From Vermamoeba vermiformis (lineage: Eukaryota): a DNA stretch of 64,000 nucleotides. Made by a program: the position numbers and the translations under genes. The DNA lies in the NCBI GenBank assembly GCA_045837725.1, contig JBEWZL010000232.1, positions 310,001-374,000 of the forward strand. The letters are read 5' to 3'. Shown here piece by piece: positions 11,158 to 57,074 of this stretch; positions within the stretch are counted from its first letter, which is position 1, and every line of letters starts with the position of its first letter. The notes under the pieces were generated by a model. It worked only from the letters and a program-made list of their open reading frames with translations, had not been told where the DNA came from and did no database searches.

Positions 11158-13933
11158 TTAGCCTCCTATTAATATCATAGGCCTATTTGTTTGTTTGTTC
11201 TTCTCGATCTCGTACATCCCGTCGTGCGAGGCTTTCTTTCGTCGAACAGCAGCACGGACTGTAGTGCGCAGTTCATCGTCGGTAGCGCCTGCTCTAATTT
11301 GATCGCGCAGACTGACTTCATTGGCTCCGAATAGGCACACCTAAAAAAACAAAGCAGATCAGCACAACCTCGGTCAATAGATCGGATCTGGCGCAAAAAA
11401 AAAAGAGAAAGTGATTGCGTATCGCGCAACCTGTGACCAAGAGCACCAGACCTGCACCGCGGCAAATCTAGTGCCCTTAAATCCGAAGTATGTGAACACA
11501 CAACCCTTGGGTTTTTGTTGAAAACAACACGTTTTACGATGAAGCGCGGTTACAGAGCACCTTCTCAGTCTCAAAGATGAATTTCTGCTCACTGAATTGA
11601 CGGCACATCATGACACCCAGAAAATTATGGTTCTGTTGAAAGAAAGTGCGCCGAGGATTCTTGTGTCAATATTGTACTACATACTGCCAATGTACAATAT
11701 TTCGTCAGGCTGTGCATTTGACGCGTCAAAATTTTTTTCGTGGCTTCTCCAGCACCAAATTTTACGACCGAAGCATGGATGTGACCGCGTGTGCACGCTA
11801 AAATACACTTTGTTTTTTCATTCAAAACAAGGAAGTTTAAGAAGCACGATAATCTGTGCGTTGTGGTGTGCTGCAAACACCAAACAATCACTACCCAATT
11901 TGTGCACGGGCCTGATCTAGTAATTTTTTCGGGGACGTAATATTGTACTAATAAAAATTAAAAAAAAGATAGTAGGCCCGGGTGCGAGTTACACGCACAT
12001 CCACTCGAATTATCCTCTTCAAACGTAAATGTTGTTGGAATCACCGAAGTGACAGACGAGGGGGCTATTATTGCCCAACGCAGGCCTACATCCCGTGGAC
12101 AGGCGAACTGAGACTCATTTACCGCTGCATATATCTAACGGTACTTTGTTGTGGTATCAGCGCCACAATTGTCCACAAATAATATGGAGAATTCCAAAAA
12201 GCGGAAAAGAACCGGATGTGCCACCGATGGCGCACGATCAAAAAGTTGTAGTTATAATAAGTTATTACTTACCTTGAGTGAGCCATCAGCCATTAATCTG
12301 AGTCTATTGCACGAGCCACAAAAGTTATTGCTCATGGATGTGATGAATCCGACTTTGCCTCTGAATCCTTTGACGCCATAAGTCTTCGACGTATTATTAG
12401 GCACATCCTAGGTGTATTATAAGTTAATATCATCTATATCAAAGCAGTTTAAGGGGTCAACGTACCGGCAACCGTTCCAGCGGGAATTCTCGTTTGATAA
12501 TGTCAATCATCTCCAAATACGACAAAAACTTCTTATCATTCCATGTATTGCCTTCAAAGGGCATATATTCGATGAATCGGACCTCGATCTGATGCAGAAC
12601 CAGCAGTTAGTAAGTATACGCGTTCGTTCAGCAAGAGGCAGCCATATGGTTGTATAAATACTCGCAATAGATACTTACAGGTTGTTTTTCAGTCCAGCGC
12701 ACAAAGTCCAGTATTTCGCTGTCATTTACACCGCGCATCACCACGCAGTTCACTTTGACTGGATCGTACCTGCAGAACAATCAGAAAATGAGCGTTAGAT
12801 TGCTGCATTATATTTTGATTATGTAATCCATACCCCATCTCTAATGCTAAGTTAATTGATCGCATCACGTGGTCAAATCCGTCGCGGCGAGTAATGAGAG
12901 GAAATTTGAGCGGATCTAATGTGTCTAAACTGATATTTAACAGATTTAAGCCCGCTGCTTTCAATGCTGGTAATTTTCGAGCGAGTACTAGGCCATTAGA
13001 GGTCATGGCTAGTGTTTTAATACCCTCGATCCGACCGAGTTCTTGACAGAGCTCTACAATATCCTTTCTAATCTATAATACCAGCTATTAGAAGTCATAA
13101 TATTATATGTATGTACGTACGGTAGGTTCTCCACCGGTTAATCTAATCTTATCGACTCCTTCTGAAGCAAATAGTTTCGCGATCCGAATTATTTCGGATG
13201 TGGTTAACAGCTGATCATTAGGCGAAAGATCTACGCCCTATCATATAATATTACTACAAATGTTGATAATAGTGCTATCACATTAACGTACCTCTTCGGG
13301 CATACAATATTTACAACGGAGATTGCAGCGCTCAGTGATGGAGATCCGCAAGTAATTGTGATAACGACCAAAAGTATCTGTCAACATATTATCTGATAGC
13401 TTGTCTAGCTTCTATAATAATCGAATAGACAATTAGTACCCCATAAATATTTTCTCTAGAATTTGACAACACAGATCCACTCGATCGAGGTTAAACGACT
13501 TACTTTTAAATCTTGGGTGTCGGTATTAGGTTGTGTACTATTATTGTTTGCATTAGGCAGCTTGATTTGTTGCTTTTGCTTTCCCGCGTCACCCGGAAAC
13601 ACATCCGAAGTGTACGATCGACTCACAGGCTGAATAACCGTTTGAGGTTAATCGAAGATTATTTAAAATTAAATACACTGCACATGAATATGGAGTTGAT
13701 TGAATAATTATGATTGGGAATCTCGAGAGATAATTAATATTCGATTTCTATAAATAACTGAAATTGGAATCAATATTCGGCATTGATTACACGCTGTAAT
13801 AATCGTATAATAATATTATCTATAATATGCTTACCTTGCCGAACCGTTTCGCTGTATTTCGAGAGGAGATCAAGGTATTTTTCAGTTGGGATCCGCAACC
13901 CCTCCGCAGCGCGGTCAAAAATAAATTATTCAT
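11158..13933 (-). CDS. MOCS1: GTP 3',8-cyclase MOCS1A/Cnx2/MoaA (radical SAM)
   Basis: [29 protein letters not shown] (CX3CX2C), [32 protein letters not shown] (CX2CX13C), C-terminal RPMILIGG. Exon 1 (13933-13835, [14 protein letters not shown]...) looks like a mitochondrial presequence. Confidence 0.95.
11395..11566 (-). ncRNA. Structured intronic RNA element B (unclassified)
   Basis: Closing stem GAGAAGGUG/CACUUUCUC (11566-11558 with 11413-11405). 17-bp hairpin 11439-11478 with four G-U pairs valid only on the minus strand. 3' hairpin GUUGCG-CGAUA-CGCAAU, then a U10 tract. Confidence 0.45.
11560..11615 (-). ncRNA. Candidate intronic double-guide box C/D snoRNA (18S rRNA targets)
   Basis: Box C-like AUGAUGU (11611-11605). 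Guide CCGUCAAUUC is antisense to conserved SSU GAAUUGACGG, followed by D'-like GUGA. Guide AUCUUUGAGA is antisense to 18S UCUCAAAGAU, followed by box D CUGA (11568-11565). Confidence 0.55.
11692..11948. repeat. Inverted repeat enclosing a hairpin-rich segment inside the moaA intron
   Basis: GTACAATATTTCGTC (11692-11706) pairs with GACGTAATATTGTAC (11934-11948) at 14/15 positions. Inner stem TCAGGCTGTGCA/TGCACGGGCCTGA. 12-bp direct repeat AATATTGTACTA at 11668 and 11939. Confidence 0.45.
11960..12094 (-). ncRNA. Structured intronic RNA element A (cloverleaf-like, unclassified)
   Basis: Closing stem GUAGGCCUG/CGGGCCUAC (12089-12081 with 11980-11972). Hairpins GGGC-AAUAAUA-GCCC, UCAC-UUCG-GUGA (cUUCGg loop) and GUGCG-UGUAACU-CGCAC, then a U8 tract. 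Confidence 0.45.
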
Positions 13934-14329
13934 TTCTATGGTGATGCTATGTACAGCTATATACAGTCGATTAAACAATAGAACCTTCCTCTGTTTAATA
14001 GAAGGACGCCACGTGCCCCGAAAATTCACACGGCGCCGCAAAATTCCTCGTGGAACCTTCCTTGGTTTCGATTTGTGATTATAATCTGCCAACTAGCACC
14101 ACTGCGCACCTAGTCGTGGCACTATATTAGTTGTAAGTGTTTATTAGGGCGGTATTTGGCTTAGTATTGCCGTGCAATATTTACAACATTAAATACCCGA
14201 GTAATTGATTTTGAATAATATTTTGGGCACGTAATTAGGCTTTTATATCATATTTAGTGCATCATATTTAATGCACCATATTACAATCACGTTAATTTTT
14301 CAAATTTGTCTAATGGATCTGTTCAAAGG

Positions 14330-14581
14330 ATGCAGGTTCGCTGTCTTTATTTTGCAGAAGCGAAGGATTTAGTAGGCTGTCGCGAAGAGACTATCACATT
14401 AGAACAAGGAGCAGACACTGCACAGCTCAAAAAAGTCTTACTAGCCCTACATCCATCCCTTCAAAAAATTATTCAGCATTGCATATTCGCAGTCAATCTC
14501 GAATACGAATCAGCTGATACTAATACCTTATTAAATAACGGCGACGAAGTGGCATTAATTCCACCCATATCAGGAGGTTAA
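14330..14581 (+). CDS. MOCS2A: Molybdopterin synthase sulfur carrier subunit MOCS2A/MoaD
   Basis: MQVRCLYFAEAKDLVG...FAVNLEY...LNNGDEVALIPPISGG with C-terminal GG. Confidence 0.95.
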   Translation: MQVRCLYFAEAKDLVGCREETITLEQGADTAQLKKVLLALHPSLQKIIQHCIFAVNLEYESADTNTLLNNGDEVALIPPISGG

Positions 14582-14597
14582 AACAAAAATTTTCAAA

Positions 14598-15352
14598 ATG
14601 TCAGATCACGATCAACACCACGAACATCACCACCACGAGCCCCATCATCATCATCATACTCACCAACACAAAAAAGATACATTAGATCCCTCTATTCCTC
14701 GCAAAGATTTCGTTAAAGTCCAAGAAGACAAGTTAGATCTAGAGCAGATCAGCAACCTTGTTCGCTGCGACGAAGCAGGAGCGATTTCAACATTTAGCGG
14801 CACTACTAAGAGCATATTTAACGGCAAGAAGGTCCTCAAGCTCGAGTACGAGGCCTATATTCCTATGGCTGAAAAAGAAATGAAAAAGATTTGCGACAAG
14901 ATCCGCAGGTAAACACCACTGGAACTACGTTGTAAATAGCACTGCTAATGTCACATTGCATTAATAGCAAGTGGGATGTCGCTCACATCGCCATATACCA
15001 CAAGATAGGTGAAGTACCGATTGGCCAGACGAGCGTCCTCATTGCAATTTCATCGGTGCACCGCAGCGTAAGTATTTTTTGCATTATTATTGACCCACTA
15101 TACTTACTACTAAGTATTACATCGCAATATGAAATACTTAGAATACGTTAAATTATGTTACATAATGTTATTGCAAGCTGACAAATTACGAGTGTGCGTA
15201 CTCATGTTTTGAATGATTAGGACTCGCTAGAAGCACTTCACTTTGCGATTGATGAGTTAAAAGCGACAGTGCCCGTGTGGAAGCGCGAGTATTATGAAGA
15301 TGGCTCGGTGTGGAAAGAAAACGAAGAGTGGCGCAAGACTCACAAGTGTTGA
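14598..15352 (+). CDS. MOCS2B: Molybdopterin synthase catalytic subunit MOCS2B/MoaE with His-rich N-terminus
   Basis: [64 protein letters not shown]. Introns about 14909-14967 and 15068-15220. Confidence 0.95.
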
Positions 15353-27104: not shown

Positions 27105-28228
27105 ATGGAACACATTTATGTACTTCCCAACGAAGTTTGGTGCGAAATATTTAAATTAATTTCAGATGTGGCTGATCTAATTCGGTAATTATTATTATTA
27201 CAAAAATAGCAGTGATCATAGAAGTTGCCAGAAGAAGAAAATGCAATAATTAATCATTTAATGACTAAATTTTAAATAGAATTCAAGCTGTATCGCGAGT
27301 TTGGCGGGATCAAATCTGGAACACTATTACAGCGCTAAATCTATCACCAATACAAAGGAAGCTTGATGAAAAGATACTACGCAGCATATTCACACCAACA
27401 AGATCCTTGAGGAAGTTGGATTTGACAGGTTGCACAAGACTTTCGGACGACGGACTTGCAGCTCTTCAACTAGTTCCAAAATTGACCTCATTGACACTAG
27501 CGTTCTGTAGTAACTTCACTGCTGAAGGCTTGGAGCATATATCATCGCTAAGTCAACTCGAAGAATTGGATTGCAACGGCTTATTTCAGGTCTGGAAACA
27601 TTTCGCTGCAGAGCAAGATTTATTGCCCCATCTGAAGTTACAGCGAAGTACTCTTAAGCGGCTCAATCTAAGTGGGGCATTGATCCATGAAATGGAGCGC
27701 ATAGTTCAATTTTCAAATCTAACTTCGCTGAATCTGCGTGGCTGTCCTTTTCTGAACGAAGGCGTTAGTCCTTACTTACCATTGAAGAAGCTCACTAACC
27801 TTCGTGCCCTTGATCTTAGCCATATGAGCGCTCGAACACTCTCGAACAAAGCGTTGTTAGAGCTCTCGATCGCGTTAACAAATCTGCAACAATTAGTGCT
27901 GGAGAAACAGAGCAAGTTAGAAAGCGATGGATTTGCTAATATATCTTGCTTGCAACATTTAGAATTGATCAATATTATGGGCATTCGGGGTCTTAACACC
28001 AGCGAAGTCGTAGCACATCTGCGTCACTGCACGAAACTAAAGACCTTAATGATCACTCCCAAGACTAAGCTACATACCTTGCGATCCAATACACCGCCGA
28101 GCTCTGATGGCGATAACTTGCTGACAGTAAGCCGTATTGAGGACGAATCCAGTACAAAAGCGTTCGATGACTTCAAAGAGATCAAAGCAGCGTTTGTGCA
28201 AGACATATGCATCATCACTAAGAAATAA
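27105..28228 (+). CDS. F-box/LRR protein
   Basis: MEHIYVLPNEVWCEIFKLI...IQAVSRVWR F-box, then LRRs (LRKLDLTGC, LTSLNLRGC). Confidence 0.85.
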
Positions 28229-28321: not shown

Positions 28322-30405
28322 TTAAGAAGTTGAATCATGACTAGCGCGCAGTGAGTCTCTGTTGTTCGTATTATTCGCTTGCTCCGAGCAGTTGTCGGAC
28401 GAGCTGTAAATGCTGTCTGCGTCTTGGGGGAAACTGATATATGCGTCAACGGCCACTGGAGACTGAACCTCTTGTAGCCCAAGGACCCCTTGTGGCTGGT
28501 GTTGGTTTGGAGCTCCAACTGATCTCGTAACTTCTTGCATCGTGTTGATCATCTCAGCGTTGTGCTGTTGAATGCCATTGAAGTTCATCTCCGCGTCCTC
28601 TGCTAGCTGAATGACGTATTTCAACCGCGGAATAATGGCCCAGCAGAAGTACACGGGGTCACTGATGGCCATGTTAGCCATGACTTGCAGCCACTCCCAG
28701 ACGAGTACGTTAGCCCCCTGAGTGAATTCAGTGTCCACTTGTTGCTCGGGCTCCGCTGGTGTCGTGGCAAAGGGCTCGCCTTGCTGGGGTGTCATTGGGT
28801 GTGTCAGCCGTCTTGACTTGCGTGGCACTGTGTCTTCGTCCGAATCAACGAGTGCGTAGCTGCGCTTTCTTGATGATAAGTTAGCAGCACTCGGGGTCTT
28901 GGGCTCGTCGCTCTCTTCGTGGATCCAAGAGGTGAAGTCTTCGTCAGTACTATCGTAGTACCACTCGTTAGTATTCGTGTTAGTGTTGTTCTGCGCATTA
29001 GTGTTGTTGTGCCACTCGTTAGTATTCGTGTGAGTGTTGTTCTGCATATCCATGTTGTTGTGCCACCACTCGTTAGTGTTATTTTCTGTCTGGTGCTCAT
29101 ATGCATTATTGAGATGCATGTTGACGTTGTAGCCCTGAATGTGAGTGTTGTTCTTTTCAGGCACAGGGTCCTCGCATATCTGCAGGTAGTGCGTGCTGCT
29201 GCTTCGGACTTTGTACTCGGGGAAGTAGCACGATGCAGCAGCCATGTTGTGCGCATTGGTGTTCGTGACAGGAGTGTAGGACGGCTCATTAGCGTTGTTG
29301 TTCTGAGTGAGAATGGCGTCCTCTGTAATGTAGTGCAGCTCATTGGTGTTGTGCGTGTTGTCAGCTGGTTCTTGTTGGACCTCAAAGTGCGTGTCAAGAG
29401 TACCTTCGTGCTTGTTGTTCGTACAAGCCTCAGTGTTGCTAGCTGTGCTCGTATCGTCCTTCGTGGATGTACTAATGTGCAGCATGTATTTAGCGAACTC
29501 TGCGTCGTTTGTCAAGCCCTTCAACGACGCATTCGGATCTTTCAGATCGGAGATTCGGTAGTCTTCTGTTTTCTTCTTGGCGTCTGGCTCATCGAGTTTG
29601 TAATATTTCTTAATGTTAACAGGCATACTTGCCAGATTTTGTCGGAGCTCCTCAGCGCTGAGTGTCGTCTTGTTGAGCAGTCTTTCTTTCTCTACAGATG
29701 TAAGGCCTTTCTTTCTTCTTCCACTGACAGTATGCCTACGCATGCAAGCCATAATGAATGAAATAGTCCTATACTGTTTCGGCGTCAGGGTGATGCATTC
29801 ACTAAAATTAGATCGGGTTAGCAACCGAACGAATCTGTTTCTTGTGCCTTAGACTTACTTGACGTTATTTGGGACGATTATATGACATAGTTTAAGTAAG
29901 CGGCCTTTATCTTGTTTCATATACGCAGGGCATCCATCAGTTTTGCTCAAGTTCCAGATTTGGTTATAGATGGCAACCAAAATCTCAGCTGTAATGAGGC
30001 TCCAATCAATGTTAGCGGCATCATCGGGATTAATGACCTTGTAGTTGTAGTAGAGCGCAGCGAAGAATAGCAGAAGGGCCACTGGACCTGCATTGAAAAC
30101 TGGCCTGTCGATCTCCTGCTTTAAAGCTTTGCTGGATTAGAATCGTTGCTTAAAGCAGATATTATGCCTATTAACGCTAAATACATACCTTGGTTGTATT
30201 CTTCTTCAGTCGGGTTAGGATTAAGAGCGACATCCTGAGCTGGTTGGGTCAGATTTGCTTCCGTGAGAGCATCTTGGACTTGAGCTACAAGGTCCAGTTG
30301 TGCATTAAGAGCATCGGCTTGAGGAGCTGCAGGTTGAGCCGGATCTAAACCACCAGGACTAGGCGGATTTGATTCTTCGTTCTTGACGCGTGGCTTGTTT
30401 GACAT
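28322..30405 (-). CDS. Unknown family, paralog A (conserved N-terminal domain plus Asn/Gln/acidic tail)
   Basis: Long ORFs. Phase-2 intron 29858-29802. Shares W..I....IY.QIW..S...P.YM..DKGR..KL and FIMACMR with paralogs B and C. Confidence 0.75.
28961..29080. repeat. In-frame 51-54 bp tandem repeat (NEWHNN...NNT unit) within paralog A
   Basis: CCACTCGTTAGT recurs at 28961, 29012 and 29066. Confidence 0.8.
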
Positions 30406-31127
30406 TTGTTGTTGCTGGTTTGAACGAGTATTCTTTTAAGACGAAAAAAAATATTTAAGCATTCTTAGACTAACAAATCAAGCCAACAAAACAAATCAGT
30501 TGATTCTTAAATCTCAGATTTTGTACGGAGTAAAATTGTGATTCAATAACAAATCAAACAACCAAACCAAACCAGTTGTGGCGAGTCGAAAAACGCTTGA
30601 ATATGCATATATGGAATAAAATACGTATTGCACTGCTTATTGTGGCTGTGTCAAATTGAGCAAGATCTACTCGTGTCACTTTAAAATCCAGGAAGAAAAT
30701 TAGCTAAGTAATTATGCAAGATATGTCTGATTTTTTCAATTATATGCACAGATACATACCATTCTCATAATTGAGTGGCCTAAAGATTCACGAAACAAAC
30801 AAAAATTTGATTTGATCTGCACTCTGAAACCAAAAAGTGCCGTATTAACTGGTAACCCGATCATGAATATTCTTCTATTTTTTGTCGCATTTTTAATTCG
30901 AAATATTGAGCTTGTGACCAAAAATGCAACAAATCTGCTAGCCAAATTGATATCTATACTCGCTGAGTCCTATAGCAATCACGTGCATTGTAACAAAAAA
31001 ATATAATAAATAAGATGGTAGCGATTGCTGCGTTGTGCGCGTTTGAAAAATTTCGATTTGAAAAGAATCTAGCGAGCAGCAAGAGCTAAAAGCACAACCA
31101 CAGCTCAAGGACCTAGTTATTTTTCTA

Positions 31128-31433
31128 ATGTCCTCAGTAAATAATGATCCAACCAGGAACTACGTGCCACCACCTCCACCACCCGGATCGAACAAAGCCA
31201 AACTTCATATTGCGGAAGACCAAGATCTCTACGGAGGTTGGGGCCTCTTCGAAGTAAAGGACCTTAATGCATTCTACGGCTTAGGCTTTGCAGTGGATAG
31301 TATTGAGATTCAAGGCCAAAAAGTGACTGGATCGCACATGTTTTTGGTCGAAGAACTTCCTCATATTACTTTGTCAGATATTAATTCTGCCATAGCGAGA
31401 GGCGTTATTGTACAAAGTCACGTAGAATTGTAG
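31128..31433 (+). CDS. Small intronless hypothetical protein (101 aa, polyproline tract)
   Basis: ATG-started ORF with protein-like composition, followed by an AATAAA-like signal. Confidence 0.5.
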   Translation: MSSVNNDPTRNYVPPPPPPGSNKAKLHIAEDQDLYGGWGLFEVKDLNAFYGLGFAVDSIEIQGQKVTGSHMFLVEELPHITLSDINSAIARGVIVQSHVEL

Positions 31434-31610
31434 ATGGAGAAGCTCATAATAAATTTTACTGGCAATGTTCCGGTCAAAAGAAGCGAATCTTGCCCATTTA
31501 GTATTATTAATAAGACAAGACAGTAATACTATTAACACGATGTTTATTTACAAGTACATTTACAGCGCACAACTTGATACGAGAGCCACGCAATCGCTGT
31601 TCAAAATTGG

Positions 31611-32162
31611 TTACTGCTTGACTTCTTGCGAGCCTGACAGCACTTCAGTGGCAGTGTAGTTGTTGTCATCGTGCACGGACTGAGGCACGACACTGTTGTA
31701 CAAGTTCAGGGCGCTGGGCATGTCGTGTGCTGACATCTGCGCGACAGAGGTGTCAAAGGCCTCGAGCGATGCTTCACTGACACGTGTCACTTCACTGACA
31801 GGTGTCATTTGAGCGACAGGGGCATAGGACTGACTGCGTTGAGGACTCGTGTCAAGTGTTGCGCGCAATGCCTTGCGAGGGCCTTGTTGACAATGTTCGT
31901 TCGAGTCGTCTCGTGCACGCTTGCCCAGAGCACGCTCTCTGTGTTCGAACAAGCTTTGAAGGATAATTCGTTGTTCAGCAATATCTTGCTCGTCCATGTT
32001 GTCAAACGGAGAGGGGTTGAGAGGTTCGAGCCGATCTGGCGTGAGAGGTTGTGGCGTGTGGTCGAGATGATCAGGGTTCTCCTTCATATCTTGTTCAATC
32101 ACGTGTTGCTCGAAGAGTTCTTGGACGTCGATGAGATCGGTAATAGGAGTAATTGGTTCCAT
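31611..32162 (-). CDS. Acidic protein resembling only the C-terminal half of the paralog family
   Basis: GKRARDDSNEHCQQGPRKALRATLDTSP aligns with KRK..SD...QGSCKSPRLTLATTP (B) and KKRR..GHGPHKSLRVGVETTP (C). Confidence 0.6.
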   Translation of the reverse strand: MEPITPITDLIDVQELFEQHVIEQDMKENPDHLDHTPQPLTPDRLEPLNPSPFDNMDEQDIAEQRIILQSLFEHRERALGKRARDDSNEHCQQGPRKALRATLDTSPQRSQSYAPVAQMTPVSEVTRVSEASLEAFDTSVAQMSAHDMPSALNLYNSVVPQSVHDDNNYTATEVLSGSQEVKQ

Positions 32163-32847
32163 GCTGATGAGTTAGATGTGAGTGGAGGTAGTTGCTCTTG
32201 TTGTTTATCAGTTGCGATTTGTATGAAAATAAATGTCACCCAAAACCTGTCTTTTAAAGCAATTCTACAATCAAATCAACAAATGAACCACAAAAGAATT
32301 CACAAAGTTGATCTTCAGATCAAATCACGAGGTTCGCAAAACAAAATTGACCAATAGGAAATCGTTAATTAACATCAAGATGCTTACTCGTTGCTAGCAA
32401 TTAATCGGCTCTAGTAGGCAAGCAATATCATGAATTTTAATTAATTATTTTTCGCTGGCATCCGTGGTTCTACTTTGCCAATAAATTCCTAATACTGACA
32501 GTGATTTTATGTGTTGAGTATGTTTTAAATCTTGGAGACCCGTCTACTTGATTTGTTTCAAAATAATACATCTGGCTCTCTTTGATGATAAACCAGTCAC
32601 TGCCATGGCACACCGCGGATAACATTTAATTAAGAGGTGAGTGGTGTTGTAACGCGTTATGATCAAGCAAAAAAACGGAAGGAAAATTCAAAACCGGCGC
32701 GTGTCTACAAAATTCATCGCTAGAACTAATGTAACACTATACCGAGCATGTCATAAATAATTTAATGATAAAACCTAAAGATATCTACAACTAATACTAC
32801 AATCTACAAACTAATCCGATAGTCAGATCTCCAAGCACAGCAGTGAA

Positions 32848-34627
32848 CTATAGCGAGTCTACTGGTTGATACTGCGAGCTCGTCGATGTATTTACATTCT
32901 CTGGCATCACGCCAGTGTCCACAAGGTCCAAAAAGTCAGGAAAACTAATGTCCAATGACTCGTCAACTGTCGTGTCATGCGGACTCGATGCTGATTCGTC
33001 AGTGACTGGCTGTTGTGCTTCTGCTTGTTGGTGACCAGTGCCGGTGTTCACTGCGTGTATGCCACCAAGTAACTCGTCAGAGGCTCGAGGAGACAGTGCC
33101 ACGGGGTACGTGTCGTGTGTTACCGTGCTCGCTTGCGTGTCATTTGTAAGCGATGGAGAGTGAGCCATCTGCGTGCTCTGAGTGGGTGTAGTGCATTGAG
33201 GCATTATTAGTGTGTTGAGTGAGGGCACAGCGGGTTGAGATGTGGCTGACATCGTGCCTTGTTCGGTCAGATCGTCACGTGCTTGGTACTGTGTTGGCAC
33301 GTAGTTGGCTTGCTGCAATTGAACCTCGAGCCATCGTGCTACACGAGGGTCGTCAACGAGCGATGGATCCACGATGAGTGTTATGGCCTCTGTTTCGCTC
33401 AAGCCTCTGCTCTGCAATGTGACTTGAAGCACAAGCATTAAATGGCGCGCGCAGTTGTAGTACTGATTAATATCTGACCCCTTGCATAGATCCAAGTGAT
33501 TTTGCAACTGTGTAGGCCAAGCTACTTTGCTTTCCTCGGAAGACGTGCGCAGGAGTGCAGGTTGGGTGGGCACGGGGGCAGGAGCAATTGCCTCGCTGCC
33601 GCGTGGAGTTGTTGCGAGCGTTAAACGAGGTGACTTGCACGAGCCTTGTTGCAAGACCTCTTCCGAATACGAATCATCACTATCGCTTGGGGGATACTTT
33701 CGTTTTGTTGCTTTTTGCACGCGTTGTGTAGTGTTTGAGATATTGTTATTATTAACTTTGATAGCATTCTCGCGCTTTTTCATGCTGCTCGGAGACAACA
33801 AGTTCACCATAAACGTGCTGAACTTGACGGGGTCGAACAACGGTTTGAAGGACTGTTTCTGCTTGTCAATGATCTCGACGCGTTGCTCAGTAATTATTAC
33901 GCAATAGTACTGCGCGATGTTGTAAGGCAGCTCTCGTTCAATGCGGTCCTTGATGTCGTCAGCAGTCAGTTGAACACATCTTACGCGCTGCATCTCCTTG
34001 AATTCTTCGTCCGTCAGCGTGGAATCTTTTTTTCTGTTGCCTCTTAGACTTTGCACGCGCATACAAGCCATCAGAAATATGACTGTGGCATACTCGCTTG
34101 GCTCCAAAATGATTGTGTCGCTAGAACAACACATTAAAATTACGCGATCCAGATGAAAGATGTTTCGATTCTTTTGAGACTTACTCGATCTTATGAGGAA
34201 AAAGTAATTGGCAGAGTTTGATCAAACGGCCCTTGTCTTCCGTCATATACTTTGGGCAATGTTCAGTACCGCTCAAGAACCAGATTTGGATGTAGATGTC
34301 TTCGACGTTCTTTTTGATAAGGTCCCAGTTGACTGTAGCAACAGTCCTAGCACAATGAATATTACATTGAGCGAGAATAGCTTCTAAGAATTGAAGAAAT
34401 ACGTTGGAGCCAGCATTGTAAGTCGGGATCAGCGTAGAAACAAGCTGATGCCTGCCTAGAACTGAAAATAAGTTCAATTTCCAAAGGCGAATAGGAAATT
34501 TGGTACCTGGGTTTGTCTCTTGAATTTGTTGTTCGGTATTAGGGTTCAACACGTTGAAGACTTCTTCCGGATCTTGGTGTCGAGAATGCGATCTGGTTGA
34601 TCGGGTGGTGCCTGCCTTGCGTGACAT
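32848..34627 (-). CDS. Unknown family, paralog B
   Basis: Two exons, phase-2 intron 34184-34121. VNWDLIKKNVEDIYIQIWFLS..CPKYMTEDKGRLIKLC, FLMACMRVQSLRGNRKK. Confidence 0.78.
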
Positions 34628-35318
34628 TATTTGAATTGAAAATTAAATTAAAAAAAGCCATTGCAATTGTGTTATTTATGTATTCTTGAACAGACAAATG
34701 ACCACCCCTTACTTGGGCAATCGACCACGTCAATCCTTCCTGCTCCAAATTTAGGTCCAACCACAAAATCTCCTTGAAAAACAAAGAGAGACCTACCGAC
34801 AATTGTCTGGCGACAAGTGTTTATCAAATTTATTAGCAAGGTGCGACCACACCAGCTGGATTTCGTCGGGTCAGATTCTGGCATTTTCGCTAATAAATAA
34901 GAATCTAATATATTTAGTATTACCTCCAAAAACACTTCATATTGATGGGAATATTCTATATTATGGCAAATAAAAATACGAGATCCAAGTATAAACTTAA
35001 AAAAAAACTAATTACGTAGAGTCATATTGGATTGATTCAAGCTACAGTGCATCACTAATATTCCTTTTGTTGATTTTTTTAAGCGAGTTGAAGTTATTTG
35101 ATTAAATCTGCCAGAAAAGGTGCTCGCCGCGTTGTGAATTCCTTAACTGCGCTGCCATTGAATTGGAACTGACTCTAATTTAAATATTGGTTGTGTGGGT
35201 GGGAAGTGGTCGTCAAAAATTAAAAATAAAATTTTTGGGGCTTTATTTACAAACTTTGACAATTATGCTGCGTGACTTAAAACGAGCAAATTGGAAGTTC
35301 AAAATAGAGTGCGATCGA

Positions 35319-36905
35319 TTAGTTCGTGGCGCTGATGCTGGCAGCTTGCGGATTTGCATAGCCCCCAACGAAATCGTTCGCACCGGACTCGAAGTCGTGC
35401 AATGGCTGGCTTGCAAGGGTTTCATCGAACGAAGTAAGTTGAACAGTACTTTGGGACAAGTCCTCGAAAGTTACGCCAAGCGGGTCGTCCTCGAAGGGCT
35501 GTGCATCTGCAGCAGGGACTTGAGCCGCGCAATAGTATTGCGTAGTGCCCAGTGTTGCAGTGTATCCTTGCTGGCTTGTGTCGTTGTTAATCGCTTGAAT
35601 ACCTTCGAGCAGTGTTTGTGTCGCAGGAGACTGCTGCACGTGCATGGTCGAGTGTTGAGTCGACCAGAGCTGATTGGCTGAATAGTCCTGAGAGGCAGGC
35701 ACTTGAGCCAAGGTCTGCTCGTATTGCATTGATGGAATGACATTAAAATCATCGCTTTGTGCGAGATTCACCACGACACGAGCTGCAGATCCGCGACTCT
35801 CCAACCAACTATTGAAGTCAAGCACCTCGTAGAGTGGCATGTACGGGTAAATTTCTTGGTAGAACTGCTTGGGGTCTGTTTCGAGAAGGTATTGTACATT
35901 CGCGAACCAATCCTCGAGGGTCGGCATTGAGGCTGCAGGGACGTTCACTTCAGGCTCTTGTTGTGTTGGTTGATCCTCTTGAATAGGCGCAAATGCCATT
36001 CCTTCATGAGGAGTGGTTTCGACACCAACACGCAATGACTTGTGCGGGCCATGTCCAACCACTCCTTCGTCACTCGGCTCCTCGCTCCAGTCGCACTCGC
36101 TGACACGACGCTTCTTTTGCGGTGACTTCTTTTGCTTCATGAACTCGTGGAACTTGACGTCGTTGAGCAGAGGTCTGAAGGGCTGGTTCTTCGTGTCAAT
36201 GATTTGCACGTACTCGTCGCTGATGATGACGCGGTAGTACTTGACAACGCTGCGTGGCAAGTCCTTTGTCATGCGCTCGGCAATGTCGCTGGCAGTCAAT
36301 TCATGGTTCTTTTTCAACTTCTCCTCTTTCATCTTCTGGTCCACCAACGTGTTCTTTGGCTTCTTAACGGGCTTGCTTTTCTTTTTGGCCTTGACAGTCT
36401 TCTTCGTGTCGTTGGGATCGGATTCGACCTTTCTCCCTTTAGTGCTTTGAATGCGAAGACAAGACATCACAAATAGAATTGTGTAGTATTGTTGCGGCGT
36501 AAGCATGATGGTGTACCTAGGTTTAAGCTCGTTAGATGCTGAGATCGCAGAACTTTTTAATTCTTGTAAGACTTACTGGACCTTATCCTCCGAAACAAAC
36601 AAAAAGGCTAGCTTGATTGAGCGACCTTTATCTTCTTTCATATGTTTGGGGCCATTTTGACTTACAAGCCAGATGTGGTTGAAAATGTCTGCAATCCGTT
36701 CCTTAATCAGCTCCCAGCTTACTTGAGCGACGACATCGGGATAGTGGAGCTCGCACTCATCGAAGAGCTCCTTCAAGAATTGAAGAACTTCTTCTGAAGT
36801 GGCCTCAGGGAGCTTGGGTTTCTGGACGATCTTAAAGGTGCGGATGCCATTCGAGAGACTCTTCTTCGTCTGGGCTTGATTGACCACGAGTGGTTTACTA
36901 AACAT
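35319..36905 (-). CDS. Unknown family, paralog C
   Basis: Two exons, phase-2 intron 36576-36517. VSWELIKERIADIFNHIWLVS..GPKHMKEDKGRSIKLA, FVMSCLRIQSTKGRK. Confidence 0.78.
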
Positions 36906-37549
36906 TTTGTTTGTTAATAATGACCTTCTATCGTGCAAAAAGCTAGGTTTTTAGCCATTCTTTTGACCGCGGACACCAACGAGTCAAACTTTTTTCTTGT
37001 CCGTCTATGGACTAAAGGGCAGGGACAATTGGCCACACTTACCAAAAGATTTTTAGTGCGATATTTACTCCAGATTTCACTTGCAAAATGCGATCCAAGC
37101 GAGATTGACCAACAGTCAACCAGACAACCCGATCAGTGTACGCAGAGCTAAACAATTGATGAGTACAAATTTAAATATAATCCTTATTTTGCTTTTGCAT
37201 TACCTAGAGTCTTATTAGACATTATGAGGTCAAGATTTGCTAAAATCCGGATTTCTTTTTGGAATCTCTTTGTCTGTTTTCAATTCTACACAGCTATTAA
37301 TAATTATTTTAGTTTTAACTTGTTGAGTGTAATTACTCACGAAGAGCCGTGGTTCAATTTTGGCACCACCTCCAAATAAATCTGCTTGACAACCAAAAGA
37401 TTCTGCATTGGGCAACTTATTGATACGAAAAGGTTGTCTGCATGATAGCGGTGAGATGCGTGTTGTGCATTACTAATAAGAAGTGCAAGAAAACTGAAAA
37501 CAAAACAATTTTCGTTATTCAATTGTCGAACAAACATAGATCAGCATGG

Positions 37550-39375
37550 ATGGACCCATTTGAAAGCTTGCCTTTTGAAATTAAAGCAGATATATTCGCT
37601 TTATTGACGCTGCCATCCGCATAGTACGTAGTAATTGGAGTAAAGTCAGATCTTGTTCAATTCAAATTCAACGCGTTGAAATATGGTTTAATTATTGTTA
37701 TTAAATCTATTTATTGCCATTTACGATGTAAATTGAGCAATTTAAACGACAAACAGATACGTTGAATATTACTAAAATATTTTACAAATAGCCACGCGTC
37801 ACAAGTGAACCACGAATGGTGCAAACAAGTTTGGTTGGGTCAATCCTCACTATATCTCACCTCGAAACAGAAAATAGGCTTCACTGATCCGCTACCGCAC
37901 TTCAGGAGGCTGTTTGCTCGACTGAATCCAGCTCGATTAAAAATATTCTCTATTGATTTGCAAAATTTCAACAACAGAATATGGGAGTACATTACGCGGC
38001 TCAATAACCTCGAAGTGTTGCAAATTACTCAGTGCGATCTAATCACCGACTATAAAGCGCTCACTTGCTTCTCCCGTCTGACTCGCCTAATTATTGAAAG
38101 TAAGTTACTATGATTTAATATTGCTATATTATTAATAAGCAAGGACTACAATGGTTTTAGTCTTTTGGATCTGACGAGTGTTTTTGTCAGGCGAGGATTG
38201 CGATCCAAGTATCATTTGCAAATGTACGACACTCAAAGAGTTAAAATTAGATCTCATGAGCAACGTTGCGGGCGCGGTGACAGGCTTCGATCACGTGTCA
38301 AGTTTGACAGCCTTGCGAGATCTCACTCTGGCACGCATGCCAATGATCGTTGTGCGCAGCTGTTACGAGCCACTGACCGTGTTGACAGCACTGACGGCAT
38401 TCTCATTTCATCCGCAGCTCGTTGACTGTGATTTGAGAATTGTCACGCACTTCGCACACCTCACTTATTTGAACACGAGTGCGTAGCCCAAGGATTCCTC
38501 ATAACATTCAATTATTAATAGGCCTATCGCAGATAAGGTCCCCTTGTACGGATTAGAATTTGAACAAGTCTTGCCGCACCTGACGCGACTGCAAGAGCTG
38601 CACATTGACCACGCACGATTGACGGCACAACAGTTCGCACAAGTGTCACTGTTGCTAGACCTACACACTTTGTCGTACAATTCCAGCAACTTTGCCGAGC
38701 TCAATGAGTTCTCTGCGATAGAGGCTTGCACGAAACTAACCGTAAGAACATCTTTTGAATACAAATCGGTTATTGACACGTGTCATTTAGCGACTCGATG
38801 TCAATGACTTCAATAGAGAACCAGCTGCCTTGTTTGCAACGATGAAGAAGTTGCCTTATTTGGCATCAGCTAGTCTCGAGGGCATCGCTGGTAAGTGCCA
38901 CCAATCGATTGATTCTCATTAACTCAACGACGTGCCAGATATTCGAGGTCTGTCAGGCATGACACAGCTTCGCTCGCTCAATCTCGACACGATCAAGTAC
39001 ACAGACGAGAGTTTAATCGTGTTGGCTTCGCTAGGACTGACGCGCCTGTCACTCAAAGCCAACAATTTTGCGCTGAGTGACTACGCTCTGTTCAACGCGT
39101 TTTCGTCTCTGCGCGTTTTGACGCTGCGCAATATCTCGAAGATCACTGAAAAGATTGCGCATGGTTGCGTGATGACATTGCCTAATTTGGAAGAATTGAA
39201 TGTTACAACGTCCTCGCCCTCAACGAGCAATATAATCAAAGATTCGCTATTCAAAGTTGTAAATACCAAGTTGCACAGCGCACAAATTGCCGTACGCCTC
39301 GTTGCAACACTTTATAAGAAAATTGATATCGGTGGTGGTCCTTATTGGAAGAAGTATCAAAAAATAACCTTGTAA
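37550..39375 (+). CDS. F-box/LRR protein
   Basis: MDPFESLPFEIKADIFALL...SQVNHEW F-box split by an intron. Multiple LRRs (LTRLQELHI, LRSLNLD, LPNLEELNV). Confidence 0.82.
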
Positions 39376-46193: not shown

Positions 46194-48529
46194 ATGAAGC
46201 TACTTGTCGCAATATTACTAGTCATAGGAGTCTTTGGTAAGTCCTCGCATTTCCTTTTTTAATTGAAATTTGATTTTAAAATTTAAACTTGTTTAAAAAC
46301 CCAATCCAGCTTACTCCGAAGCTTTTTTCAGTTACCGTAGTTAAAATTAATAATAATAGTAATATTATTATGAATAGTGACCCTACCCTGCTTTGTTGCC
46401 GCTCAGATAGCAGACAATTTAATTTTCGAGCAAGTTGCTGTACTGCCTTTTCGTGGAACACCAGCCTTTGCATCAACAAATAGCAGCCGTGCTTATTTTT
46501 ATGGAGGAGCTCTAACTAAATCAGCTTACTTCGCGGATCTTGCCACAGGAAAAGTTTTTAATTCAACGGACGGTCTTTTTAATCTTGAAGGCGCTTGCGC
46601 CGTGATCAATTCTGTTAACGATATATTCGTAATGGGTACGTATAACAGACACTAATTGATTTATTTAAATCCAATTTCTAAATTTAATTTTTTTTCAGGA
46701 GGAGATCAGCTCGGCGATGGATCTGGCACTGCAGCGTTCCAATACTTGCAAACCGGTGCCGATGGATTTACTACCGCTAGTGGCATGCTTCAAACGCGTC
46801 AATATCATCGCTGCGTTTACGAGCCTGTAAAAGACCTGATCTACTCTCTCGGCGGCTACTTACAATCTCCGAGCTGGATAACGCTGATTACTATGGACTA
46901 TTATAAACCAGGTATTGGTTGGTCTGTTGCGCCTTATCCGATTTCGAATCCAGTGACCGGATTCGCGTTCATTTTGGACAACTCCCAAACCCTGTACATT
47001 CTGGGCGGAACTAACGAGTCTAACGTGCCCGTCGATTATATTCAAGTATTTAATCAAGACACTAGTGTTTTTAGTCGGCTACAAGACACTCTTGCAATTC
47101 CTCATAGCAACATGGGTACGGATCCAAATCCAGGCATAAATTTTTTTATTTCATGAACGGGTCTAATGTTATGATTATAGGTGCGGTACTAGTGCCCGAG
47201 TTCAATATGATCATATTGTGCGGAGGAGATGAAGCCAATTGTCAATATTTCCAGCCCGGCAGTACTCCCAAGACCGGTGTAATTACCACGAATTTGCAGC
47301 CATCCAATTTGACCTTCGCGCACGTGATTGGTCCAAATCTCTACCTCGTGCAAAAGACTGGTCAAATCTTAGTGGCTAAATGTGCCCTGGCGCTCTGTCC
47401 GCACGGCTGCATCGACGGAGTTTGTGCCGATGCCCCGACGCCCGTGTCAGTCGCGCCGTTCAGTGGCTGCGGCCAGTGCACTGGTGACACGGCGCTGTGT
47501 GTTCCTGAACGGGGCGTGTGTGTCGGTAACAGAGTGGTGCCCATCTTGCAGTGCATTGACACGCTGGACAACGGCAAGAAGAGAAGTCACTTCGCGTACA
47601 ACAATCTCGCGCCGGTCACTGTGAACATTGCCAGTAACACTGCCAACAATTTCATCGCGCCGAGTGGCACACCTATCGATAGTTTCACGCCTGGTCGCAG
47701 CTACTACTACCCGCTGGATGCCTTTACAGTGAGTCCTATTGTCATTGGCAATATTGTTCGAGTACTCACGCTGTTGAACACAGATTGACAGCACACCGAA
47801 CACAGTGGTCACGTGGTTTGTCGACGGCTATTTGATCTCATTTAACACCTCCGACACCTCGCTAGTCTGTCCAGACAGTAAGATTAATTATTACAGATGC
47901 TATCAATAACAATTACTAATGGCATACAGACGCCACATTCGGCATCAAAGTGTCGCCGGTACCATCAGACGTGCAAGCATTTCTCGACCGATTGAGGCAA
48001 GCTCTCGCCTCAGTGCTCGGCGTATTGGCCACGAGATTTCAAGCGGAGTTAGTGACGCAAAAGCGACAGAGCAATCTCGAAGCGGAGATTGAAGTGACAG
48101 TATCGAGCAGCGGTGACAGCACGGAGCCCTCGCCCGCTGAAATCGTCAGCAACTTTGTGACCAATCAGACCGCCGTTCAAAAAGTCCAAGAACAAGTCCC
48201 TGAAGTGCAAACTATCACTCCTCCCAAGCCGCTGCCCAGTACGTAATAACGCTCAATTTAAACTGCAAATATCTGATATTTTTCACAGCTGAGCTGAGCG
48301 GTCAAGTTGTACCTGGCGCTCCGACCGTTGCTCCTGGTAAGCACTTGTTTGCGATTGAATAGTAATACTGGCCTGTTCTAACAACTTTTTGCCCAATCAA
48401 ATAGTTGCGCCAAAAGTCCCTATCACGGCGTCTAGTTCAGTGAAAATCACCGAAAGAATTTTCTTGCCCATGAACGTACTGTGGATCTGCTTGTTCTCGG
48501 TGCTCTACGTGTGGATACAGTTTGGATAG
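46194..48529 (+). CDS. Cell-surface protein: signal peptide, Kelch-type propeller, Cys-rich segment, beta domain, GPI/TM tail
   Basis: MKLLVAILLVIGVF. Kelch motifs YFYGG, IFVMGG, IYSLGGY, LYILGG, IILCGG. Pro/Thr stalk and C-terminal hydrophobic segment. Confidence 0.75.
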
Positions 48530-49268: not shown

Positions 49269-51953
49269 TTATTTTTTGAAGTCAAACACGACGGCTGAAG
49301 CAGGACCTGGTCCAGTTTGGTAAGTGAAGTAGCGAGTGTTCGCACGAGGAGGGCCATAAGAACTTGAAACGCCTCCTATGATGCCTTGATGGTCTTGAAT
49401 GTAAAATCCACCGCTCCATTGACACGTGTTCAAGTCCCAAATATTCAAGATGCGATTTGTCATGGACAACACGCGCTGATTATTTGCATCGATGAGGTAA
49501 TTAGTATCAGCGTCAATAGTATTAGGGACCTGTAATAATCATATAATAAGCACCTTATTGTAGCATTCGAACGAGGTTTAAATTTACCGTTGAAACAATG
49601 CCGTTCATTTTTCTAATGTCAGCAATGTCGATTCTATTCCTGCTTGTAGCCACGACGCGATATTCGTCCAAAAATTTTGCCCAAGTGTATCGATGCACTA
49701 CATTAGTATCAAATAATTGACCAATCACTTCAAACTTGGCTGAATGCAATTGGATGCTGTGATCGGTTGGAGGATAACGATTGGTGGATATGAACATGTC
49801 GTTGAGGGGATTGACGTCTAGTAGCTCCGAGTCAATCTTTAGCACTTTTTGTGCAGGTAGTCGCTCGTCTAATGTATATACGTAACGGTCTGATTACAAA
49901 AAAAAATTAACGGATCTGCATAAAATTTAACTTTTGTCTGCTTACCGATGTATAGTTTATAATTGCAGCTATGCAAGTAATTAAATGAGTCGAATTTCAA
50001 TTGATGTTTTGAGATTAATTTGGTGCCGATAAACAGTTCGACTTCGTTTTGCATGACCACTGCCAGTGTGGGCTCAATCGCGTTCGAAGAATCAATAATA
50101 GCGACGCCTTGGGGCTTAAATCTCGCGCTGATCTGCAGGGACGATTCAGACAAATGATGTTTGGTCCTCGTGTCATCGTCCCAACGCATCCAAAAAAAAC
50201 CTGTCCTGTCGTAGTACCCGTATCCATATGTTTTTGCGAAAGATCCAACCACGATATTTTCATCCATCGCCTTAAACTCGCCGCCAATGACAAATTGACT
50301 ATATTTGCCGTGGTTCCATCGCGTTAGAATGCTACGAAGGAAGATCCGTTAATGACACTTTGACACTTTGACACTTTGACATGTCTTACGATGAATCGCG
50401 CCAATAGATCGACTCCCATGGAATAGATGCGTTGTCGGGTCTGCTGTGGATTTGGTGATATTTTCTCGGAAATTGAAATTTCATCAGTTGCTTTGCACCT
50501 GTTGACAGCGTTTTGAACCCAGTTGAGACGCATCTAAGTGCCAGCATGGAGTACATATCCAAATATAGTATGATGATCTCGATGATCTCTGTGGGCAGTT
50601 CCAAAAAAGGAAAAATCGTGTCCCCGACGAACTTGCTCAAATTCTTCGACTTTTGAGATTCTGTTAAACATTTCTTCAGCATTACCGTATATAATTGATA
50701 TCATTATAAATGTATACCGTAGATGACATTAATATAAGGGTACATCTGTTTGATAACTTGCGCCGGACTTGTTGATCGCAACGCTTTTTTGCTCTCTTCG
50801 TACACAGCTTTGTAAAAATCTGACAAATGCGAAAAAATAATTAATTTAATTAATTTTGTCATTATTAGACTATTAGTGTATATTTAATTACCGTTGAAGT
50901 CACTTAGTTTCACGGGCTCTACTTCGTACCACTCGAACTGTTCCAGCAGCGATGGATGCAAATATGCAAATGCAAAATCTGGTCGCGTGAGATCAATTTA
51001 ATGCGATTGCCTTATTTGGTAATAAATATTACGTGTAGTTACCGATGTGTGGGAATCTCAGCTTTGTTCGTTGCAAGAATTTCAAGCACCTTTTCAGCTC
51101 TAAGTCGAGCATGACCACTAACTCCGATAAATCACGTGATATTATATGACAAAAATCGTCTTTGTACGCGCCGTAAAGTGATTCTAAGAAATTATATCGA
51201 AATGGTCTGTAGTTCTTGAGCAGGACTTGAGTGACAACTGAATTGCCTAATCATATTTGTAAGTAACTGTATTGTCCGGACTAACGCAAAAAAACAGCGG
51301 AAATTAACTGCTTAGATCCGGTTCACAAAAGAAAAGTGGATTTAAATTTCTTGAGCCGGTGTACGATACTAAATTATAATGCATACCCTCTATTCTTTCC
51401 GACATCAGTTCATGCACGCTGATACGATGCGCCAATGCCGCTAACAACATGGGCTCTTGGATCAACTCCTTGAACGTTACGCGACGCACTTTGAACAGCT
51501 GGAAAATGCAATCGCGTGTAACTTGTCGCTTCTTAGTTGCAGTATTAAATATACCTATTAATCATGTTTATAAGTGGTGCTAAAAACGCGAGCGCATCCA
51601 ATAAACTTACGAAGACGCGCAAACCAACCAATATTGCTCAAATCGCTCGGAATATCGATGAGGCTATCGATATATTCTATATCCGTAGCACAATAGACTA
51701 ATAGGAGCAAAGCTTCGGTGCTCCATTGTGCTCGATCAGGACAGTTAAAATTCTAAAAGAAATTAAATATTTTCTACGATATTTCTCAAAATTATTTTGA
51801 ATGCGCCGTGATGAACAGTATAATGATTACCTTGGATAAATAATAGCTGGCCAATTTTTGAGTTTTAGATCCGAAATATTTGAATGAGAGTATTTCTGAG
51901 CGGATTAGCTCAAAGTCGTTGCTTAGCAGTGTCGATGGCGCTACCCAGTCCAT
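49269..51953 (-). CDS. Protein with N-terminal helical region, internal F-box and C-terminal WD40-like propeller
   Basis: Phase-consistent multi-exon model. FPFLELPTEIIEIIILYLD..SMLALRCVSTGF, RWNHGKY, ILNIWDLNT, VVFDF end. Confidence 0.72.
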
Positions 51954-54858: not shown

Positions 54859-57074
54859 TTAAATCAAAATAGCTAAAGCCATCATCAAACCAACACTAAC
54901 AGTACCCAAGGCAGCAGATGAGATACGTGCAGGGGTTCTTGACGGAGTTCTCGTCGGGGCAGCGAGAGGTGCAACAGGAGGCATCGGAGTTCTGTAATCA
55001 AAGTCCACAGCACGGACCAGCATGAAGCCTCTGTTGGTGTCGTTGACAATGCCGACAGCAAAGTACGACACGACAGTATCTGCGTCATCGTACAACGTGC
55101 CGTTGATAAGTGTAGCGCCGCCTTTGGTAGCAATGCGTGTTGCCAGTGGATTGCTGGCATTGACAGATGTGTAGCCGAACACTTCTGGATAGATGAGCGA
55201 AGCGACTGTCTGGCCATCGATGTCAAGCGTGACTTCGGGAGAGGTCGCGGAAGCATGGACTCCTCGAATGTAAGCAGTGCCTGCTGCAGGTTTGACAAAG
55301 TTATCGTTCAATTGCATGATTCTGGGGCTCAGAGCTCCGCCAATAAGTGCCGTGACGAAATTGCCAGCGTTAACGCGGATCGGACTGCGGAACAACTCTG
55401 TGTCGTCTGGGGCTGAGTGCACGCTCACTCGGTAGAGACCGGGAAGTACTTCTCCATAAACTGTGAAGTTCGTGTAGCTCATGTTTTGCACGAAGGGAGT
55501 GCCATCGATTTTGACGTTAACTGTAGGACCACCAAATGTAGCTAGGGCGTGGAAGGCACGCAAAGCTCCTGCACTTCCATATAAGGCATCGACACTCGGG
55601 AAAACAGTGAAAGTGGTGATTCCGTCTGAGTTCGGTAAACCTGCAGCAACTATAGTAATGACAGCCCCCGCGGGAATTTCCAACTGTGTTTGAAGAATGC
55701 GCGTCTGCGTGCCAGCAGCGTTGATAACGCCCGTGTAAGACCCAGCGGGAAGTTCAGCATAGCCACTTGCGAGGCCATAGGCAAGGTACGTAACCATGGC
55801 TACTCCGTTCACATAAACATCGACGGCGGAGGAGGTGGCTCCTGCGTGCATGATGCGCACACGAGAAGTTCCGTTCGTTGGCGCAGTGTTTCTGTCATAA
55901 ACAAGACGGCCCACGGGAACGGATCCGGTTTCGACAGGCACTGCGAACAACGTGGATTCAGTGAAGCCGTTCAGGAAAGCAGTGACGGAGATTATAACAG
56001 TGTTCTCAACTGCAACCGCGAGATCGTGAGCTCCCGCTGGAATGTTGAGGTAGTTTGTGATGTTCGTATACCTGCGGTAAAAGTAACAATTAGTTCGAGG
56101 ACTACAACGAAAACTACTGTCACATATAAAGTATGATATTATTATTCTATGGCGGGATTGTCCAAGCCAACCAAACTAAGGATCCACTTTCATCCGTAAC
56201 AGCATTTTTTCCGGATTTCAAAAATTTTAGGGGCAGAGTAAATTATTAAAGTTTACCTGATATTTCTGAAGAGATAGAAAAGGCTATCAGCAACGACGTT
56301 TACGACGAATTCCGCGGGAACAGCGTGTACAAAAGCCAAACGGGTTTCGATGGAGTAGTCGGTGAGTTCGTAGACGGCAATGTTTGGCAGTGGTCCTGCA
56401 GCGTCATTGCGACCGACAATAAGAACCAAATAACTTTTGAGGCTTTCGAACGTAACGGATTTGGAGATGTCGGGTGGGCTTGACGAACCGGCATTTCTTA
56501 CGTTAACAAATCCAGTTCCAGCGGTGCCTAAAGTAGGTGCAGATACGTTTGCATAGTCCAAGTTGTTAGCCAACGAAGTGAGTTCGGTTCCGGTTCCTAC
56601 ATCCACGTTACCAACACCAAAAGCGACGTGACTGACGGTAACGCGCGCCTGACCCGGGTCAAGTGGACTAACATTGTCGGCAATGCTACCCAACTGAACG
56701 CCTAAGTTGCTGAAGGCTACCAAAACGTAGGAAAGTTGGCTCACGACGAGAGTACCGTTTGTGTAAACGTCCGTGCCTCCAGCAGGCTTGACTTGGAAGT
56801 CGTATGAGTCATAGATAAGATAAAACCATTCGCTGGCATCCTACAATATTAGTTTAGATTCAAGTTTTGGTCACAAAGTCTAGATGCATCTTACCAAGTA
56901 CTTGATATTCCGCAAAGAATATGCGACGAAGCCGTCCTTTAAGAAGTATACGTCGAATGCAGTATCAGTATTAAAAGGATAGGCGTTGATAACCTTGATG
57001 CGACCGAAACTTTGGGCGAATACGGTTGCAGCGCCTATAATCAAGAACAAAGTCACCAAAAGAGTTCGGCTCAT
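54859..57074 (-). CDS. Multi-DUF4397 surface protein (signal peptide, GPI/TM tail)
   Basis: Repeated R.R..HA....VDVYV.G......L.Y...SGY..LPAG.Y units. Signal peptide MSRTLLVTLFLIIGAATVFA. Two introns. Confidence 0.82.

Follow-up and report, generated by a model that had tools for sequence, protein, structure and literature searches.

Among described systems, three come closest to the gene family reported here. The ALOG proteins are multi-copy proteins of one clade, with a compact N-terminal helical domain, a basic import-like stretch and low-complexity regions (PMC3537659). PCI domains comprise about 200 amino acids (aa), with several helices followed by a helix-helix-strand-strand-helix unit. 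The ORFans of Vermamoeba vermiformis, which make up 32.1% of the predicted genes according to the report on this amoeba (PMC7125106), have no homolog beyond the lineage. The locus analyzed here is a tandem array of three genes, designated A, B and C, at positions 28322–36905 of a V. vermiformis contig segment (JBEWZL010000232.1, positions 310,001–374,000). This whole segment of 64,000 nucleotides (nt) is called the window, and all coordinates refer to it. Features of the array lie on the minus strand unless marked (+).

The encoded proteins are likewise multi-copy and clade-restricted, with a basic import-like stretch and low-complexity regions behind an N-terminal domain that is predicted to be helical. 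They differ from ALOG and recombinase N-terminal domains in that no sequence match is found and the conserved Cys/His insert is absent from the family; import and DNA binding are predictions here. The N-terminal domain shares its length and, in low-confidence models, the predicted order of secondary structure elements with PCI domains. PCI proteins, however, are conserved complex subunits and not tandem orphans with long acidic tails, and there is no Pfam match to PCI. With the ORFans the family shares the lack of homologs beyond the lineage. Unlike singleton ORFan predictions, it is conserved, comprises several genes and has defined modules and a shared intron. The reading tentatively preferred here is that the genes encode lineage-restricted nuclear proteins that regulate transcription or chromatin. 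Their N-terminal domain would bind to DNA or to a partner in the nucleus, with the tail as the effector.

Three tandem paralogs with a shared intron

A, B and C are real paralogs. In tblastn comparisons of the spliced products with the window, B and C match each other with an E value of 7e-36, A and B with 7e-22 and A and C with 7e-14. The global identity of the N-terminal domains is 40.5% for B and C, 35.1% for A and C and 33.2% for A and B. All three genes are located on the minus strand, in agreement with an initial annotation of this DNA, which had proposed three co-oriented paralogs. Introns of 57 nt (A), 64 nt (B) and 60 nt (C) are in phase 2, have GT..AG ends and interrupt the same alignment column. 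As had also been stated, each of them starts with GTAAGTCT. There are four copies of this sequence in the window versus 1.99 expected (14 of 100 shuffles reach four), and three of the four coincide with the minus-strand intron donors at 29858, 34184 and 36576.

Gene A (28322–30405) encodes a predicted protein of 657 aa. The model consists of the exons 30405–30185, 30131–29859 and 29801–28322 (including the stop codon), which are separated by predicted introns at 30184–30132 (53 nt) and 29858–29802 (57 nt), both in phase 2. Exon 1, the upstream start of exon 2 and the 53-nt first intron are backed by the likeness of the product to the N-terminus of the transcript-derived protein P0007 (see below). 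Gene B (32848–34627) encodes 556 aa, or 571 aa if a putative first intron of 45 nt (34506–34462) is not spliced; this first coding intron is uncertain. The shared intron of gene B is predicted at 34184–34121 (64 nt, phase 2) and exon 3 at 34120–32848. Gene C (35319–36905) encodes 508 aa in the coding exons 36905–36577 and 36516–35319, between which the shared intron is found (36576–36517, 60 nt, phase 2). An in-frame stop codon is present 5' of its ATG at 36905. The spliced models of A, B and C contain no internal stops. Introns in the window have GT..AG ends and are 53–64 nt long.

The splicing of gene C was observed in X7, presumed to be an RNA run, from an organism 95–99% identical to the window. 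A contig of 558 nt (record 7, depth 10.6) covers 36306–36513 and 36574–36908 and skips exactly the 60-nt intron of gene C. On the shorter side of the intron 208 nt are aligned, and the match is unbroken from 36574 to 36908. X7 further reveals an intron of 57 nt in the 5' leader of gene B (34739–34795, ±1) and two introns in the 5' leader of gene C (36906–37341). The latter are located at 37148–37203 and about 37280–37340, with joints from 37147 to 37204 (CT..AC) and from 37279 to 37341. The leader introns have GT..AG ends on the minus strand, with one exception that carries extra letters. Transcription of gene C and its predicted splicing are therefore confirmed, as is splicing in the leader of gene B. 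The shared introns of A and B, which are the second ones in the models, are predicted from the sequence alone.

An X7 contig also jumps from 36908, in the start region of gene C, to a stretch of 15 letters whose match in the window is found about 150 nt further upstream (approximately 37056–37070), and no fitting GT..AG boundary is present. This jump near 36909–37060 could be an insertion or deletion of about 150 nt between the two organisms, with a 5-nt identical stretch flanking it, or an artefact of assembly or reverse transcription. Three raw RNA runs that carry the same species label (X17, X18 and X19) contributed 20, 12 and 29 reads over a region of 12 kb. The majority of these reads are 90–95% alike and align only partially, the flanking genes are just as bare, and the runs are uninformative about expression.

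Between A and B an additional member, D, is located (31611–32165), an open reading frame (ORF) of about 184 aa counted from the first Met. It contains the cluster KRAR, an acidic stretch, the motif RKALRATLDTSP and an acidic tail. In tblastn, D matches the motif region of B, C and the homologs P0001, P0002 and P0005 with E values of 0.002–0.06. D looks like a truncated family member, because the relative P0005 carries the same motif together with the second half of the domain. No remnant of the N-terminal domain was found upstream of D in a three-frame translation of 31500–32860. The array had been introduced as one of three genes; the three full paralogs stand, but an apparently truncated fourth member has to be added. 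The upstream sequences of A, D, B and C have two 8-mers in common, which is not significant versus shuffled sequences (mean 0.77, maximum 6). Between A and D an ORF of 123 aa with a proline run is found (31062–31430 (+)). It has no Pfam match and may be a small unrelated gene.

The N-terminal domain, its relatives and the downstream modules

The domain comprises 198 aa in A (29474–30130, with the 57-nt intron inside), 197 aa in B (33799–34459, with the 64-nt intron inside) and 218 aa in C (36129–36860), where a Lys-rich insert of 22 aa is present in the linker. These boundaries were derived from alignments (for gene A from A1, A2 and A6). The domain is longer than the approximately 170 aa given initially, because a basic linker of variable length parts two conserved halves. 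The residue pattern that had been listed (L.F, W.LI....IY..IW, DKGR..KL and further blocks) is present in alignments A1 and A2. The domain had likewise been called basic, which does not hold throughout: the net charges of A, B and C are +1, +2 and −2 in the part encoded by exon 2 and +8, −1 and +14 in the part encoded by exon 3. Comparison of the exon-2 and exon-3 profiles gave no indication of an internal duplication between the halves (hhalign, probability 0.2).

With the exon-3 half (A1) as query and a threshold of E ≤ 0.001, HMMER retrieved only seven proteins from a full set of 1.84 billion representatives, four of them with E ≤ 1e-10 and one with E ≤ 1e-30. All seven apparently come from relatives, and the family is lineage-specific as originally suggested, as far as this query is concerned. 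The exon-2 half was searched by a word-indexed search and against Pfam and the PDB. Three of the proteins are counterparts from a second assembly: P0003 is 87.4% identical to A, P0001 89.5% to B and P0002 86.3% to C. P0004 (28%) and P0006 (25%) belong to the B type, whereas P0005 is D-like. P0007 (618 aa) is A-like, with 34% identity overall and 52% over the exon-2 part. It originates from a Trinity transcriptome, is marked as a complete ORF and carries the EukProt label Vermamoeba vermiformis. Among the relatives, P0007 alone has contiguous domain halves; the last third is missing (profile positions 6–70 only).

Further searches added no relatives. The word-indexed search with exon 3 of gene B (region 1–135) gave one match among 62 candidates, which is P0001. 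With alignment A6, four of 7996 candidates among longer proteins were confirmed, all of them known already. With the exon-2 alignment A2 none of 1371 candidates among longer proteins was confirmed; this search is weak and also missed P0007. In a metagenome collection, 595 pattern matches for A5 and 92 for A2 were obtained, none of which was confirmed. The same holds for 22 pattern matches of A2 in viral contigs.

The identity to the counterparts from the second assembly is higher in the domain (97.8, 94.6 and 96.9% for A, B and C) than in the tail (88.5, 89.1 and 84.6%). This difference indicates that the domain is under purifying selection and the tail less tightly constrained.

No known family could be assigned. 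None of the six exon pieces, D or the seven homologs came to or near a curated gathering cut-off of Pfam-A (2025 copy). No PHROGs family was matched, the PDB sequence profiles gave no match below E 0.78, and the ESM Atlas yielded no usable neighbour. Similarities to forkhead, LEM/SAP, Myb, E2F and cyclin-box domains were seen by eye but rejected, as none has a Pfam match at E ≤ 1. The domain had been called unrecognised, and indeed it is formally undescribed, because neither Pfam nor any other library searched contains it.

Structure prediction with AlphaFold was carried out for the exon-3 half (A1) and for the contiguous P0007 segment with the window pieces as alignment rows (A6). Both models are of low confidence (predicted local distance difference test (pLDDT) 49.0 and 49.4; predicted template modelling score (pTM) 0.29 for both) and agree in secondary structure only. 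Four long helices are predicted, followed by a linker and a unit of the order helix-helix-strand-strand-helix. The predicted helices 1–4 correspond to the blocks L.F, W.LI....IY..IW, DKGR..KL and Y.T..F.MAC.R (pLDDT about 49). Because of the low confidence of both models, no fold can be assigned. Foldseek found no match in the PDB at E ≤ 0.001. The best row, which is not significant and derives from a pLDDT-49 model, is the PCI domain of eIF3a (4k51_B; E 0.58, TM 0.19–0.20). The initial annotation had recommended this combined check, from which neither a known fold nor a new one emerges.

Across the homologs the order of modules is domain, KR-rich cluster, acidic Ser-rich stretch, [RH]K-x-x-[RK] followed by TP or TS, second module and acidic tail. 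The KR cluster, the acidic stretch and the TP module are kept in all seven homologs and in the truncated D. In gene A these elements are RKR, an acidic stretch and RKSRRL...TP (28787–28873, aligned with P0007). In gene B they are KRK, an acidic Ser cluster and KSPRL...TTP (33604–33708; kept in B, C, P0004 and P0006), and in gene C KKRR, an acidic stretch and KSLRV...TTP (36009–36119). A basic motif ending in TP had been placed behind the domain. The motif is present in all three proteins, but in A it is found about 200 aa downstream, behind an insert rich in Asn, Thr and His. The part of the gene A coding region that encodes this insert contains a 51-nt tandem repeat (28961–29066; 2.1 copies, 89% matches), translated as a series of N/T/H-rich ...NTNEW... 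units. In the counterpart P0003 this region is different.

The second module comprises about 60 aa. In gene B (33325–33525) it reads W..L..HL...Q.Y...LM...L..RG.S..EA...DPR, a pattern of the B/C type that is common to B, C, P0004 and P0006. A related block is found in the A type (28589–28711, common to A and P0007) and had been noted initially as a helical patch. Gene B additionally contains a third short motif of the B/C type (33040–33093), SP..TD.L.G.... The tails are rich in Ser, Thr, Gln, Asn and Pro, contain acidic-hydrophobic patches and have net charges of −36, −15 and −27 in A, B and C. Reading of the translations by eye revealed no obvious signal peptide or membrane segment at the N-termini.

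Possible functions of the family

If the proteins are nuclear regulators, the N-terminal domain of about 200 aa would specifically bind either DNA or a partner in the nucleus and be built of four core helices, the basic linker and the small helix/hairpin unit. The KR-rich cluster, which we take to be an import signal, would direct the proteins to the nucleus. The acidic Ser cluster together with the K-S-x-R...T-P site would be phosphoregulatory; both assignments are readings of sequence patterns. The second conserved module may provide partner contacts, and the long acidic tail, rich in Ser, Thr, Gln, Asn and Pro and with its acidic-hydrophobic patches, could be an activation-like effector. 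Nuclear localisation, binding of DNA or a partner, phosphoregulation and activation are thus all inferred from sequence features. Transcription factors of eukaryotes are described as evolving predominantly by lineage-specific expansion (PMC3537659). Neither a transposon family nor a known non-nuclear family was matched, and transcripts exist.

Several observations weigh against nuclear regulators. No DNA-binding or other family was matched in Pfam, PHROGs or the PDB sequences. The alignment lacks a conserved Cys/His set for metal binding and contains only one invariant Cys. The domain of B is near neutral (+2 and −1). At a pLDDT of 49 and a pTM of 0.29, the four-helix core and the hairpin unit are predictions of low confidence, and the nuclear localisation signal and the phosphosite are pattern readings and not tool-based predictions. 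Furthermore, since about one third of the V. vermiformis genes are reported to be ORFans (PMC7125106), an unassignable amoebal family is unsurprising in itself. Proteins that have a disordered tail and defy assignment are common in this amoeba and do not have to be regulators.

A nuclear protein that does not bind DNA is nearly as likely, although this too is a doubtful assignment. The domain would then be a protein-protein scaffold of the helical-plus-winged-helix type or part of a chromatin or cell-cycle factor, and KR...TP would be a signal for regulated import or degradation. The module architecture fits such a protein equally well, and the domain is not consistently basic. K-x-R-L/V...TP could be a pair of kinase-docking site and phosphosite. 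The non-significant Foldseek row also points to a PCI domain, but it is statistically meaningless and derives from a pLDDT-49 model, and no Pfam PCI or other scaffold family is matched at E ≤ 1.

It is unlikely that the proteins are non-nuclear or have a wholly different function, in which case the basic cluster would be no import signal and the tail would be a fast-evolving disordered region. The localisation of A, B and C is a pattern reading, about a third of the genes of this amoeba are reported to be ORFans (PMC7125106), and the ESM Atlas is without a usable neighbour. On the other hand, a hydrophobic leader is not visible in the translations, and the retention of the KR cluster, the acidic stretch and the TP module in seven of seven homologs and in D speaks against such a function.

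Derivation from the DNA-binding domain of a mobile element, as described for the ALOG proteins (PMC3537659), is improbable. The predicted four helices, which span about 100 aa and precede a basic stretch, are similar to what is described there in general terms for such domains (PMC3537659), and the family is multi-copy and lineage-restricted. Among 13 scanned sequences, however, there is no Pfam ALOG or integrase SAM-like match at E ≤ 1, and no PHROGs integrase family is matched at this threshold. The proteins have no catalytic domain, and terminal or long repeats are absent: no flanking repeats of at least 25 nt were found except for the internal coding repeat of gene A, and no Pfam transposase, integrase or reverse transcriptase domain was detected. 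The position of the spliceosomal intron is stable, the neighbours are housekeeping genes, and seven matches in 1.84 billion representatives do not correspond to a dispersed repeat family.

A locus for mating type or self/non-self recognition, with tandem members that diverge fast or differ between strains as idiomorphs, had been considered initially but is very improbable and unsupported: the strongly diverged tandem paralogs (33–41% identity) and the faster evolution of the tails would fit, but A, B and C have counterparts at 86–89% identity in another assembly with no presence/absence pattern between the two genomes compared, the domain is more constrained than the tail (95–98% versus 85–89% identical), and the A-like and B-like subtypes in other sources imply old duplications. 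Because these subfamilies occur in other sources, the genes do not look like recent duplicates in fast divergence.

Genomic setting and meaning for the amoebae

The GC content of the window is about 0.41, similar to the value of 41.7% given for V. vermiformis (PMC7125106). Pfam scans of the longer ORFs of the window identified Integrator subunit 3, isochorismatase, a radical-SAM enzyme, ThiS/MoaD, MoaE, a Ras GTPase, Kelch, F-box and leucine-rich repeat proteins and two DUF4397 ORFs, which show that the window carries ordinary chromosomal genes.

The array is flanked on both sides by leucine-rich repeat genes on the opposite strand (27269–28225 (+) and 37424–39372 (+)). An ORF starting near 37540 begins with an apparent F-box, as seen by eye. 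ORFs with Pfam matches to Kelch and F-box are located further downstream (46656–47153 (+) and 50389–50700 (−)), which suggests a local abundance of SCF-adaptor-type genes. A ThiS/MoaD-like ORF (14258–14578 (+)) and a MoaE ORF (14559–14909 (+)) overlap by 20 nt in different frames, beside a radical-SAM ORF (region including 12725–13072 (−)). This molybdenum-cofactor neighbourhood in a eukaryote could represent a bicistronic MOCS2-like arrangement, or the overlap could simply reflect an intron. At 54862–56840 (−) two adjacent DUF4397 ORFs are present (E 1e-37 and 2e-12). They were possibly acquired horizontally, because DUF4397 is mostly bacterial.

The family is set apart from ordinary orphans: it comprises several tandem genes that are conserved, expressed and modular and have an intron in common, and it is as such a tractable candidate. 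A more specific proposal, speculative and rather unlikely as it stands, is that the N-terminal module is an undescribed DNA-binding domain of a transcription factor family that only Vermamoeba-like tubulinid amoebae possess. Its ancient subtypes (A, B/C and D), kept in a tandem array, could then control a programme specific to this lineage, for example encystment. The amoebae are hosts of giant viruses and of intracellular bacteria and, to our knowledge, gene regulation in this group is almost unstudied. If A, B and C belong to just another disordered orphan family, the result is ordinary. If the N-terminal domain is a new module that binds DNA or a partner in the nucleus, one more clade-specific family of regulators would be known from these amoebae.

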